A DNA stretch of 25,098 nt from a virus, in the UHGV virus genome UHGV-1632131, one strand, 5' to 3'. Shown piece by piece: positions 21,924 through 22,499 of the stretch. Within the stretch, counting starts at the first letter, position 1. Every line of letters starts with the position of its first letter. The translations under genes were made by a program, and so were the position numbers. A model generated the notes under the pieces. The model was not told the origin of the DNA. It searched no databases and was given only the letters and a program-made list of their open reading frames with translations.

Positions 21924-22499
21924 ATGACTGTTTTGGCTAATGCAACGTATACAGAGCAGGACCGCATCTTGAGTGAGTTCATTGGACGCAATGAACGCTG
22001 GTCATGCATGGGTGACGCTTTGTATCACGCACTGTCAAACAAAGGGGTCAACATCGAAACGGCGTCAAAAGGCGATTCCCATGCTGTGACAGTAACAGTT
22101 CGTGGATGCAGCCTTACCGAAGTCCATCCCGAACCTTATGTTGCGCTTGCCGAGGCCGCTGTAAAACTCCTCAAGTTTCATAAACAGGCTGTCGCTGGTG
22201 GACTTTCCATTGCCAAAGCAAACATTCCTTTTTCTGTCGCAATCCACTGGTTAATGAACGGATTAGACGCACGCCGAAAATCCTGGCCTAAAGGACAGTA
22301 CATATCACTCGAACCCGGCTGCATTGAAAGTAAGGACAAGATGGTTAGCTTTCTTCCGGAAGGAATATTCAACGTGCAAAAGGGCGTCAAAGTCTCCATT
22401 CTTCCACGTCTGGTAATGATGGATGGTGCTTTGCAAGCACGTTCTGACTGGTTTGCCAGCAGCGTAGACATTATGGCAACTGACTGGGAGGCATTTTGA
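21924..22499 (+). CDS. protein with C-terminal DUF2829 (Tad2-like) domain and an uncharacterised N-terminal domain
   Basis: ATG with strong GGAAAGGAGAGG Shine-Dalgarno. The C-terminal half (approx. nt 22225-22496) matches my recollection of the DUF2829 pattern: FSVAIHWLMNGLDARRKSWPKGQYISLEPG ... MMDGALQARSDWFASSVDIMATDWEAF (compare the family-typical FGEAxEALKxGxKxRRxGW ... FIYLVPG ... PWLASQTDxLAEDWE). Needs HMM confirmation. Confidence 0.55.
   Translation: MTVLANATYTEQDRILSEFIGRNERWSCMGDALYHALSNKGVNIETASKGDSHAVTVTVRGCSLTEVHPEPYVALAEAAVKLLKFHKQAVAGGLSIAKANIPFSVAIHWLMNGLDARRKSWPKGQYISLEPGCIESKDKMVSFLPEGIFNVQKGVKVSILPRLVMMDGALQARSDWFASSVDIMATDWEAF

Follow-up and report, generated by a model that had tools for sequence, protein, structure and literature searches.

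A two-domain Tad2-like protein in the ban slot of a D6-like, P1-related phage-plasmid

Introduction

Sponges of the Tad2 family are one of the main means by which phages blunt nucleotide-signaling immunity, as provided by Thoeris, Pycsar, and the cyclic oligonucleotide-based antiphage signaling system (CBASS). The virus genome UHGV-1632131, a stretch of 25,098 nt that we analyzed at its full length and refer to as the window, contains an open reading frame (ORF) whose C-terminal half resembles these proteins. An earlier note on this DNA had proposed that the product is a candidate anti-defense sponge and may be a two-domain variant of Tad2, which sequesters glycocyclic ADP-ribose (gcADPR), the signal of the Thoeris system. 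The locus raises the question of whether the product is truly a Tad2 protein and, if so, which signal it might capture. The homology and the predicted fold answered the first part clearly. Regarding the second part, an alignment with characterized members indicated that the residues forming the ligand cage are strongly constrained, yet that both of the characterized Tad2 pockets are chemically different here. We concluded, with moderate confidence, that the gene product is a soluble accessory protein of D6-like phage-plasmids, built of two domains, whose most likely role is anti-defense through sequestration of a nucleotide-derived immune signal.

Results

A conserved gene with a C-terminal Tad2 domain

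The ORF product matched PHROG 7362, a family of unknown function, over its full length (E = 2e-69). Homologues were found in 124 PLSDB plasmids (from Escherichia, Salmonella, Shigella, Pantoea, and Enterobacter) and in phage D6, whose orf6 product was 54% identical, and the homologous proteins formed 15 clusters (43 to 99% identity), nearly all of them 191 amino acids (aa) long. Because of these three findings, the ORF was identified by homology as a real, conserved gene. WP_064198813.1, which is encoded by the 79.5-kb Shigella dysenteriae plasmid NZ_CP026816.1, was 100% identical to the 191-aa protein. Searches of NCBIfam and PADLOC with this protein produced no match. The protein was soluble as judged from its composition: it had no hydrophobic segment (maximum 19-residue Kyte-Doolittle hydropathy [KD19], 1.37), a grand average of hydropathy (GRAVY) of 0.00, and an isoelectric point (pI) of 7.0.

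The three motif blocks by which the earlier note had recognized a DUF2829 domain were all present in the proposed order. Specifically, A106-x-x-W109-L-x-x-G113-x-x-A116-R-R-x-S-W121 was followed by Y126-ISLEPG and then by W176-FASS-V-D182-IM-A-T-D-W188-E. The proposed domain start near nucleotide 22225 was also accurate, as residue 101 begins at nucleotide 22224. A hidden Markov model search bore out the domain call: Pfam PF11195 ("Tad2-like") matched residues 103 to 190 over profile positions 3 to 72 of 73, with an E value of 6.9e-11 and a score of 43.0 bits against a gathering cutoff of 25 bits. The score of D6 orf6 was 39.1 bits. When the C-terminal domain alone was used as the query in a word-indexed protein database, zero candidates were returned, and a profile alignment was used instead. 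In the profile search, the domain fell among about 8000 PF11195 proteins. The sole meaningful match in the PDB by sequence was SptTad2 (8wjd; E = 0.011). Within the family, mean pairwise identity was 65% in the Tad2-like half versus 52% in the N-terminal half.

Two AlphaFold models were built. The first used a shallow alignment of the family only, and its predicted local distance difference test (pLDDT) values were 82 to 94 in the N-terminal domain and 35 to 67 in the Tad2 half. The second used an alignment enriched with 26 diverse PF11195 proteins from the profile search, and its mean pLDDT was 88.6, with values of 84 to 96 across both domains and 84 to 93 over residues 101 to 191. In this C-terminal region, the modeled secondary structure consisted of a helix (103-111), six strands (116-118, 126-130, 132-134, 149-151, 162-166, and 172-175), a second helix (180-184), and a last strand (188-190). 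The prediction thus showed the Tad2 fold, which is an N-terminal helix, an antiparallel beta sheet, and a short helix before the last strand. When the model was compared with the PDB using Foldseek, the top five matches were all Tad2 structures (HgmTad2/AcrIIA7 8KBK, 8KBJ, and 8KBI; SPO1 Tad2 8SMF; and SptTad2 8WJD), each with a probability of 1.00 and with target-normalized template modeling (TM) scores of 0.59 to 0.70. The best matches in BFVD were phage proteins named "Thoeris anti-defense 2-like domain-containing," with TM scores of up to 0.81.

By homology, the C-terminal half was a genuine, divergent member of the Tad2 (DUF2829) family, and the protein had two domains. This domain call was solid but unsurprising. 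The family had already been flagged by automated tools; in an automated survey, the label Tad2 AcrIIA7 (anti-Thoeris) was assigned in 93% of the phage-plasmids that were D6-like and in 56% of those that were P1-like.

Pocket residues and the proposed sponge function

In the complex of SPO1 Tad2 with gcADPR, W25 and W73 make van der Waals contacts, N26 and D79 make polar contacts, and T78, I63, T65, D67, H71, and S76 make adenine or water contacts. In HgmTad2, the diphosphate is bound by N22 and G23 of both protomers, and the mutants W21A/N22A and S90A/T92A/D93A lose binding (Li et al.). To place the present protein next to these, we counted residue conservation in 16 members of the 191-aa family. 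The equivalents of SPO1 W25, W73, and D79 (HgmTad2 W21, W87, and D93), which are W121, W176, and D182, were invariant in 16 of 16 members, and V181 and W188 were also invariant within the family. Other SPO1 contact residues corresponded to M165 (I63), D167 (T65), A169 (D67; variable in the family), and S174 (H71; S, T, or Y in the family), and the HgmTad2 equivalents of M165, D167, and S174 were M76, A78, and N85, respectively. The SPO1-type set of adenine and water contacts (T78, S76, I63, T65, D67, and H71) was not found in the present protein.

By analogy with characterized Tad2 proteins, the C-terminal domains would oligomerize, and the resulting inter-subunit pockets would be lined by the invariant W121, W176, and D182. 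Such pockets would capture a small immune signal of nucleotide origin made by a host defense system. For the N-terminal domain, which has a fold like that of a double-stranded RNA-binding domain (dsRBD), the simplest role would be that of an accessory oligomerization or partner-binding module. The protein would be expressed on infection or induction, when C1 repression is lifted. The identity of the signal is a separate matter. A test of 18 Tad2 homologues, together with controls, against seven systems (Hadary et al. 2025) showed that family members can inhibit CBASS, Pycsar, or Thoeris (types I, II, and IV), and Tad2 specificity is therefore plastic.

Several observations weighed against a sponge function of this kind. 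A functional gcADPR site is predicted to be missing from only about 1% of Tad2 proteins (Li et al.). In the present protein, the WNG loop was replaced by W121-P122-K123 and was one residue shorter, and the diphosphate-binding N-G was gone; position 122 was P in 15 of the 16 family members and A in the other. SPO1 T78 (HgmTad2 T92) corresponded to the invariant V181, and the equivalent of S76, S179, was variable in the family (S, A, T, I, or M). None of the four residues of the HgmTad2 cyclic-dinucleotide pocket that have been validated by mutation was kept (R31 to E130, S47 to F143, F70 to I159, and N85 to S174). Among tested relatives, the "WP"-loop homologues Tad2_69, Tad2_72, and Tad2_80 were inactive against the seven Thoeris, CBASS, and Pycsar systems (Hadary et al.). 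The confident model of the Tad2 half depended on the canonical Tad2 proteins in the alignment, given the pLDDT of 35 to 67 obtained with the family-only alignment. Finally, a terminator-like hairpin (19719-19736) lies between the gene and the operator-overlapped promoter described below.

Because WNG is replaced by W-P-K and because family-specific invariant residues (V181, D175, Q171, and R162) occupy further contact positions, the canonical 3'cADPR binding mode is probably not used. As worded in the earlier note, sequestration of gcADPR to counter Thoeris was not borne out: the loop, the T78/T92 position, and other contacts differ, and Tad2_69, the nearest tested relative of the C-terminal domain (35% identity; E = 2e-11), inhibited 0 of 7 systems. 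Tad2_79, which has W-S-K instead of W-N-G, still inhibits Thoeris types I and IV (Hadary et al.), and a protein is therefore not disqualified by the loss of N-G alone. The inactive homologues Tad2_69, Tad2_72, and Tad2_80 offer no functional guidance.

A second DUF2829 gene was observed in NZ_CP026816.1, outside the window and directly after dut (28233-28673 in L002, our coordinates for this plasmid locus). Its 146-aa product had a canonical WNG loop, a Pfam score of 78 bits, and an N-terminal extension of about 60 aa, and it was 67% identical to Tad2_68, which has been validated against type II Thoeris. It was only 23% identical to the 191-aa protein, and the two DUF2829 paralogues of this plasmid are unlikely to be redundant.

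An orphan N-terminal domain with a common small fold

The N-terminal portion of about 100 residues had no Pfam match at an E value of ≤1, in keeping with the earlier note, which had seen no recognizable motif there; dsrm, Acb4 (PF13876), and Sequestin (PF21825) were all unmatched. An exhaustive HMMER search with the N-terminal 98 residues against 1.84 billion representative proteins returned the protein's own family and three giant proteins only. We rejected the three giant proteins as compositional noise, the one that could be classified being a Calx-beta repeat protein. The proposal of a two-domain variant was supported by the AlphaFold models, in which the N-terminal domain was folded separately as a compact, confidently modeled unit of about 85 aa that was conserved across the family. 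Its predicted structure showed the alpha-beta-beta-beta-alpha arrangement of a dsRBD. The domain is a sequence orphan with a common small fold.

The KKxAK motif was absent from this domain (helix 2 starts HPEPYVALAE, without lysines there), as was the GPxH loop motif, and the corresponding loop was variable in the 191-aa family. Because there was no dsrm match, there were no KKxAK lysines, and the pI was 6.9 (i.e., not basic), the domain did not look like an RNA binder. In the model, it appeared nearest to "degenerate" dsRBDs that mediate protein-protein contacts. Known sponge structures were not among its fold matches.

The two-domain architecture could not be upheld as a novelty, as N-terminal extensions and fusions of Tad2 are common. 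Long Tad2 proteins include HgmTad2 (151 aa), Tad2_73 (158 aa), and the BFVD matches (150 to 239 aa), and tandem DUF2829 proteins were among the profile-search matches. Acb4-Tad2 and Sequestin-Tad2 fusions have been published; Tad2 fusions are common and functional, and the logic of fusion led to the Sequestin sponge family.

The ban slot and its regulation

The gene was located immediately upstream of lpa-pacA-pacB-c1 in six lineages, and it occupied the slot that ban has in the C1-repressed operon of phage P1. A conserved structured RNA leader separates it from a tRNA with a CAT anticodon (Table 1). RNAalifold, applied to six sequences, placed at least three hairpins and 26 pairs in the leader, 9 of them with compensatory changes, and the leader matched no Rfam family at an E value of ≤1. 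The same leader was present in the unannotated 286-nt trnI-ban spacer of P1 and was conserved even in distant relatives. Behind the tRNA(CAT) and the leader, P1 carries ban as its cargo and the window carries the Tad2-like gene; the homology of the window to P1 stopped about 340 nt 5' of the Tad2-like start codon.

The P1 C1-operator consensus, ATTGCTCTAATAAATTT, had no match in the window within 3 mismatches and only poor ones at 4 to 5 mismatches. It was dropped as an operator motif, and a 10-mer of this lineage, ATTTCTAACA, was used instead. The 10-mer was enriched in the window (10 occurrences versus 1.8 expected) and in a 40-kb plasmid segment (17 versus 2.8 expected). It often occurred as inverted intergenic pairs, and its positions paralleled those of the P1 C1 operators before repL, ref, lpa, and the ban operon. 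As judged from this distribution, ATTTCTAACA is probably the C1 operator half-site of the D6-like lineage. One inverted pair of the motif (19090-19117) overlapped a predicted strong promoter reading toward the tRNAs and the gene. At the equivalent position, the P1 annotation places a divalent operator, Oban-ab, which overlaps P1ban and "controls expression of ban."

The hairpin between this promoter and the gene consists of GCCCATCTCCGGGTGGGC followed by T7, and the same hairpin is found 5' of ban in P1. From the operator-promoter to the hairpin, about 620 nt of the plus strand (19123-19745) contained no convincing ORF. The matching region of P1 has an annotated "dicF-like region," and this segment possibly acts as an attenuator before the tRNAs or encodes an early noncoding RNA.

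The late-promoter box of P1, AAGTSACTT-N4-TANNNT (the AAGTGACTT box), was not enriched in the window (4 matches versus 3 expected). ACACACT-N3-TANNNT was enriched, with 3 exact matches versus 0.03 expected, and these preceded the genes starting at 2788, 4221 (portal), and 8875 (DarB-like). This sequence, which differs from the AAGTGACTT box of P1, is a candidate for the Lpa-dependent late promoter of the lineage, and none was found upstream of the Tad2-like gene. Because the gene has the ban slot of the P1 C1-repressed operon and carries no late-promoter signature, we infer that it probably belongs to an early, C1-repressed ban-type operon and not to the late regulon. It would be expressed once C1 repression is absent, during infection or induction, and such early timing would suit an anti-defense function.

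The Tad2-like gene is translationally coupled to a downstream 130-aa ORF via a TGATG overlap. This ORF had no match in Pfam, NCBIfam, the PDB, or PADLOC. It was present in D6 (orf5) and in a Raoultella contig (L011), disrupted in lineage L010, and absent in lineages L003 to L007 and L009. We rejected an obligatory two-gene system because the ORF was absent in several lineages.

Features and genomic context

By homology, the window is a D6-like, P1-related phage-plasmid. The features discussed here are listed in Table 1.

Table 1. Features of the Tad2-like locus and its surroundings (window coordinates unless L002 is indicated)
Feature	Position	Strand	Remarks
Complete ORF, 191 aa plus stop	21924..22499	+	ATG start; N-terminal dsRBD-like domain, then C-terminal Tad2-like (DUF2829) domain
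Shine-Dalgarno AAGGAG	21913..21918	+	5 nt 5' of ATG; read from the sequence
N-terminal domain, residues ~7-92	21942..22199	+	Helix, helix, three beta strands, long helix; predicted dsRBD-like fold; sequence orphan
Tad2-like (PF11195) domain, residues 101-191	22224..22496	+	W121, W176, D182, and W188 conserved; WNG loop replaced by W-P-K
130-aa ORF	22499..22891	+	ATG overlaps the Tad2-like stop (TGATG); PHROG 7004, function unknown; pI 8.5
tRNA, CAT anticodon (P1 trnI)	21319..21394	+	ARAGORN; Rfam tRNA, 63.5 bits; P1 annotation
Conserved structured RNA leader	21395..21585	+	~190 nt directly 3' of tRNA(CAT); alignments, RNAalifold
Candidate C1 operator pair ACTTCTAACA / TGTTAGAAAT	19090..19122	+	With overlapping sigma-70 promoter CTAACA-17-TATAAT; promoter score 10 of 12
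Second candidate operator pair TGTTAGAAAT...ATTTCTAACA	22892..22921	+	Between the 130-aa ORF and lpa; downstream unit end
ATTTCTAACA sites, window	6932, 16628, 17678, 18945, 19090/19108, 22892/22912		
ATTTCTAACA sites, L002	25420, 26833, 37538/37558, 39431/39451, 40113		
ACACACT-N3-TANNNT sites	2743-2758, 4172-4187, 8808-8823	+	
Further ACACACT-N3-TANNNT site	8696-8711	-	Divergent minus-strand gene
Further ACACACT-N3-TANNNT site	22954-22969	+	1 mismatch; just 5' of lpa
lpa, late promoter activator	23002-23394	+	Pfam BPP1_LPA, E = 6e-48
pacA-like terminase subunit	23391-24755	+	PHROG 1711 terminase, E = 3e-150
DarB-like gene	8875-15717	+	Methyltransferase/helicase, 2280 aa; PHROG 1685 full length and DarB-like PHROG 10089
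Ulx-like anti-restriction gene	15754-16188	+	Directly 3' of the DarB-like gene

The GC content of the gene was 48.3% and that of the window was 49.0%, and we rejected a recent foreign acquisition of the gene on this basis. Upstream are genes for the 2280-aa DarB-like protein, a Ulx-like protein, a PmgS-like head protein, and TciB/TciC-like peptides, as well as three tRNAs. The idea of an anti-defense neighborhood found only loose support: the DarB-like and Ulx-like genes are real, but they are 6 kb away in other transcription units, and there is no dedicated island. A VRR-NUC nuclease gene, the PmgS-like head gene, a separate operator-promoter, tRNAs, and tci genes lie between them and the Tad2-like gene. 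The presence of the DarB-like and Ulx-like pair is in line with the reported occurrence of the Dar system in all P1/D6 phage-plasmids.

The pacA-like gene was a single intact 454-aa ORF in the window, versus two overlapping coding sequences in NZ_CP026816.1 (L002 21468-22831). The difference stems either from a frameshift or assembly error in the plasmid record or from the window having come from another isolate.

Discussion

Alternative explanations

The alternative that survived best, which we regarded as possible though doubtful, was that the DUF2829 fold, together with the dsRBD-like domain, targets a macromolecule, which could be a structured nucleic acid or a protein of either the host or the phage. 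The protein might then be a regulator, an accessory for replication or another early function in the ban slot, or a direct inhibitor of a defense protein. The alteration of both known small-molecule pockets would fit this explanation, as would the lack of a known ligand among the WP-type homologues, an N-terminal fold typical of RNA- or protein-binding modules, and the presence of this gene, in place of the ban helicase, after a tRNA and leader that are shared with P1. There is also a precedent, as the DUF2829 protein AcrIIA7 (i.e., HgmTad2) was first recovered as an anti-Cas9 activity. However, all DUF2829 proteins of demonstrated mechanism are small-molecule sponges, and the strongest conservation in the family was at the pocket-equivalent tryptophans and aspartate. 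In addition, the N-terminal domain has no KKxAK motif, basic character, or dsrm match, as noted above.

It is unlikely that the protein is a canonical Tad2 that binds 1''-3' gcADPR (3'cADPR) and inhibits type I Thoeris, with the N-terminal domain being irrelevant. Membership in PF11195 and the correspondence of W121, W176, and D182 with the main gcADPR contacts are what such a protein would show, M165 matches M76 of HgmTad2, most Tad2 proteins are predicted to be gcADPR competent, and an automated screen labels D6-like Tad2 genes "anti-Thoeris." Nevertheless, the residues that hold the diphosphate from both protomers (N26/N22 and G23) have given way to P122 and a one-residue deletion, and T78/T92, T65/A78, and H71/N85 have become V181, D167, and S174, respectively. 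The two HgmTad2 multiple mutants described above lose binding, none of the WP-type homologues that were tested was active against type I Thoeris, and the closest record of the element already has a canonical WNG Tad2.

A bolder version of the preferred sequestration reading also seemed improbable to us, namely, that the WP-loop Tad2 subfamily sequesters a signal beyond those now known or tested and that the N-terminal domain may be a second module that binds a ligand or a defense protein. If this version were true, the WP-loop protein would provide a handle on an uncharacterized signaling defense system of the Enterobacteriaceae.

We gave little credence to a double sponge, in which the N-terminal orphan domain would be a new ligand-sequestering module fused to Tad2, as in Acb4-Tad2 and Sequestin-Tad2. 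Other sponge domains are often found fused to Tad2, a new sponge family has already come from "guilt by fusion," and the N-terminal domain is compact, confidently folded, about 85 aa long, and conserved in the family; its fold matches, as noted above, were to structures other than known sponges.

The product name that the Prokaryotic Genome Annotation Pipeline (PGAP) gives to WP_064198813.1 and its relatives, "MW1434 family type I TA system toxin" (TA, toxin-antitoxin), was rejected as very improbable, because the name can be traced to a list drawn up by bioinformatics, with assays made only of Fst, TxpA, and a holin and never of MW1434 (an 81-aa prophage gene), because type I toxins are small hydrophobic membrane peptides whereas this protein is 191 aa long, soluble, neutral, and nonhydrophobic by the values given above, and because Tad2 homologues are routinely expressed without toxicity. 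The RefSeq/PGAP "MW1434 family" name is also found on other DUF2829 proteins, where it conflicts with the experimentally established sponge function.

Significance

Phage-plasmids of the D6/P1 type are frequent in clinical Escherichia coli, Shigella, and Salmonella. Two very different DUF2829 proteins are encoded by the closest public copy of the element, one of them 67% identical to a validated type II Thoeris inhibitor, and the pocket chemistry of the protein studied here matches no characterized Tad2 member. If the protein is a sponge, identifying what it binds might bring to light a new immune signal or a new specificity, and the fused orphan domain would be a candidate for guilt by fusion. 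If it is not a sponge, the labels "anti-Thoeris Tad2" and "type I TA toxin" are both overinterpretations. The interest of the gene lies mainly in a subfamily without a known target and in its orphan fused domain.

Comparison with known systems

The characterized Tad2 sponges SPO1 Tad2 (8SMF/8SMG), HgmTad2/AcrIIA7 (8KBI-8KBM), SptTad2 (8WJD), and MoTad2 (9EIB) share PF11195 with the present protein and are likewise phage encoded. The topology is predicted to be alike (an N-terminal helix, an antiparallel sheet, and a short C-terminal helix), and the F/A/G/R...W...W..D....DW skeleton is kept, including both pocket tryptophans and the aspartate. Identity to the characterized members is only 19 to 29%. 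Like HgmTad2, the present protein has extra N-terminal sequence and an "SLP"-type insertion (FLP here), but its N-terminal part is a structured domain of about 95 aa, whereas the HgmTad2 extension is about 50 aa and is absent from the 99- to 104-residue crystallized chains. Tad2_69, Tad2_72, and Tad2_80 have the W-P loop and the "ARR..W" helix in common with the present protein; they are single-domain proteins of 73 to 108 aa from environmental viruses, whereas the present protein has two domains.

Acb4-Tad2 of Pasteurella phage Pm86 and Sequestin (PF21825)-Tad2 are similar in that they, too, combine Tad2 with another small folded domain in a single phage or mobile-element protein. The partner domain of the present protein belongs by sequence to neither the Acb4 nor the Sequestin family; no stand-alone form of it was found, and its predicted fold is dsRBD-like alpha/beta, in contrast to the all-helical Sequestin. 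Its likeness to the type B degenerate dsRBDs of Staufen1 (RBD5; 4DKK) and TRBP (dsRBD3; 6ZBK) and to the phage "ABA sandwich" protein BC1872 (1R7L) is at the level of the fold only (11 to 19% identity). Compared to those structures, the present domain has an extra N-terminal helix and lacks the dsrm match, KKxAK, and GPxH.

The P1 ban operon (Oban-ab/P1ban - trnA - trnT - tciABC - trnI - leader - ban) and the window have the same order of elements: an operator-overlapped promoter, the hairpin, tRNA-Asn, tRNA-Thr, tci genes, tRNA(CAT), and the leader of about 190 nt. The two differ in their operator half-sites, which are ATTTCTAACA-like in the window versus ATTGCTCTAATAAATTT in P1, and in their cargo: P1 carries the DnaB-like helicase gene ban, and D6-like elements carry the Tad2-like gene, either alone or followed by the 130-aa ORF.

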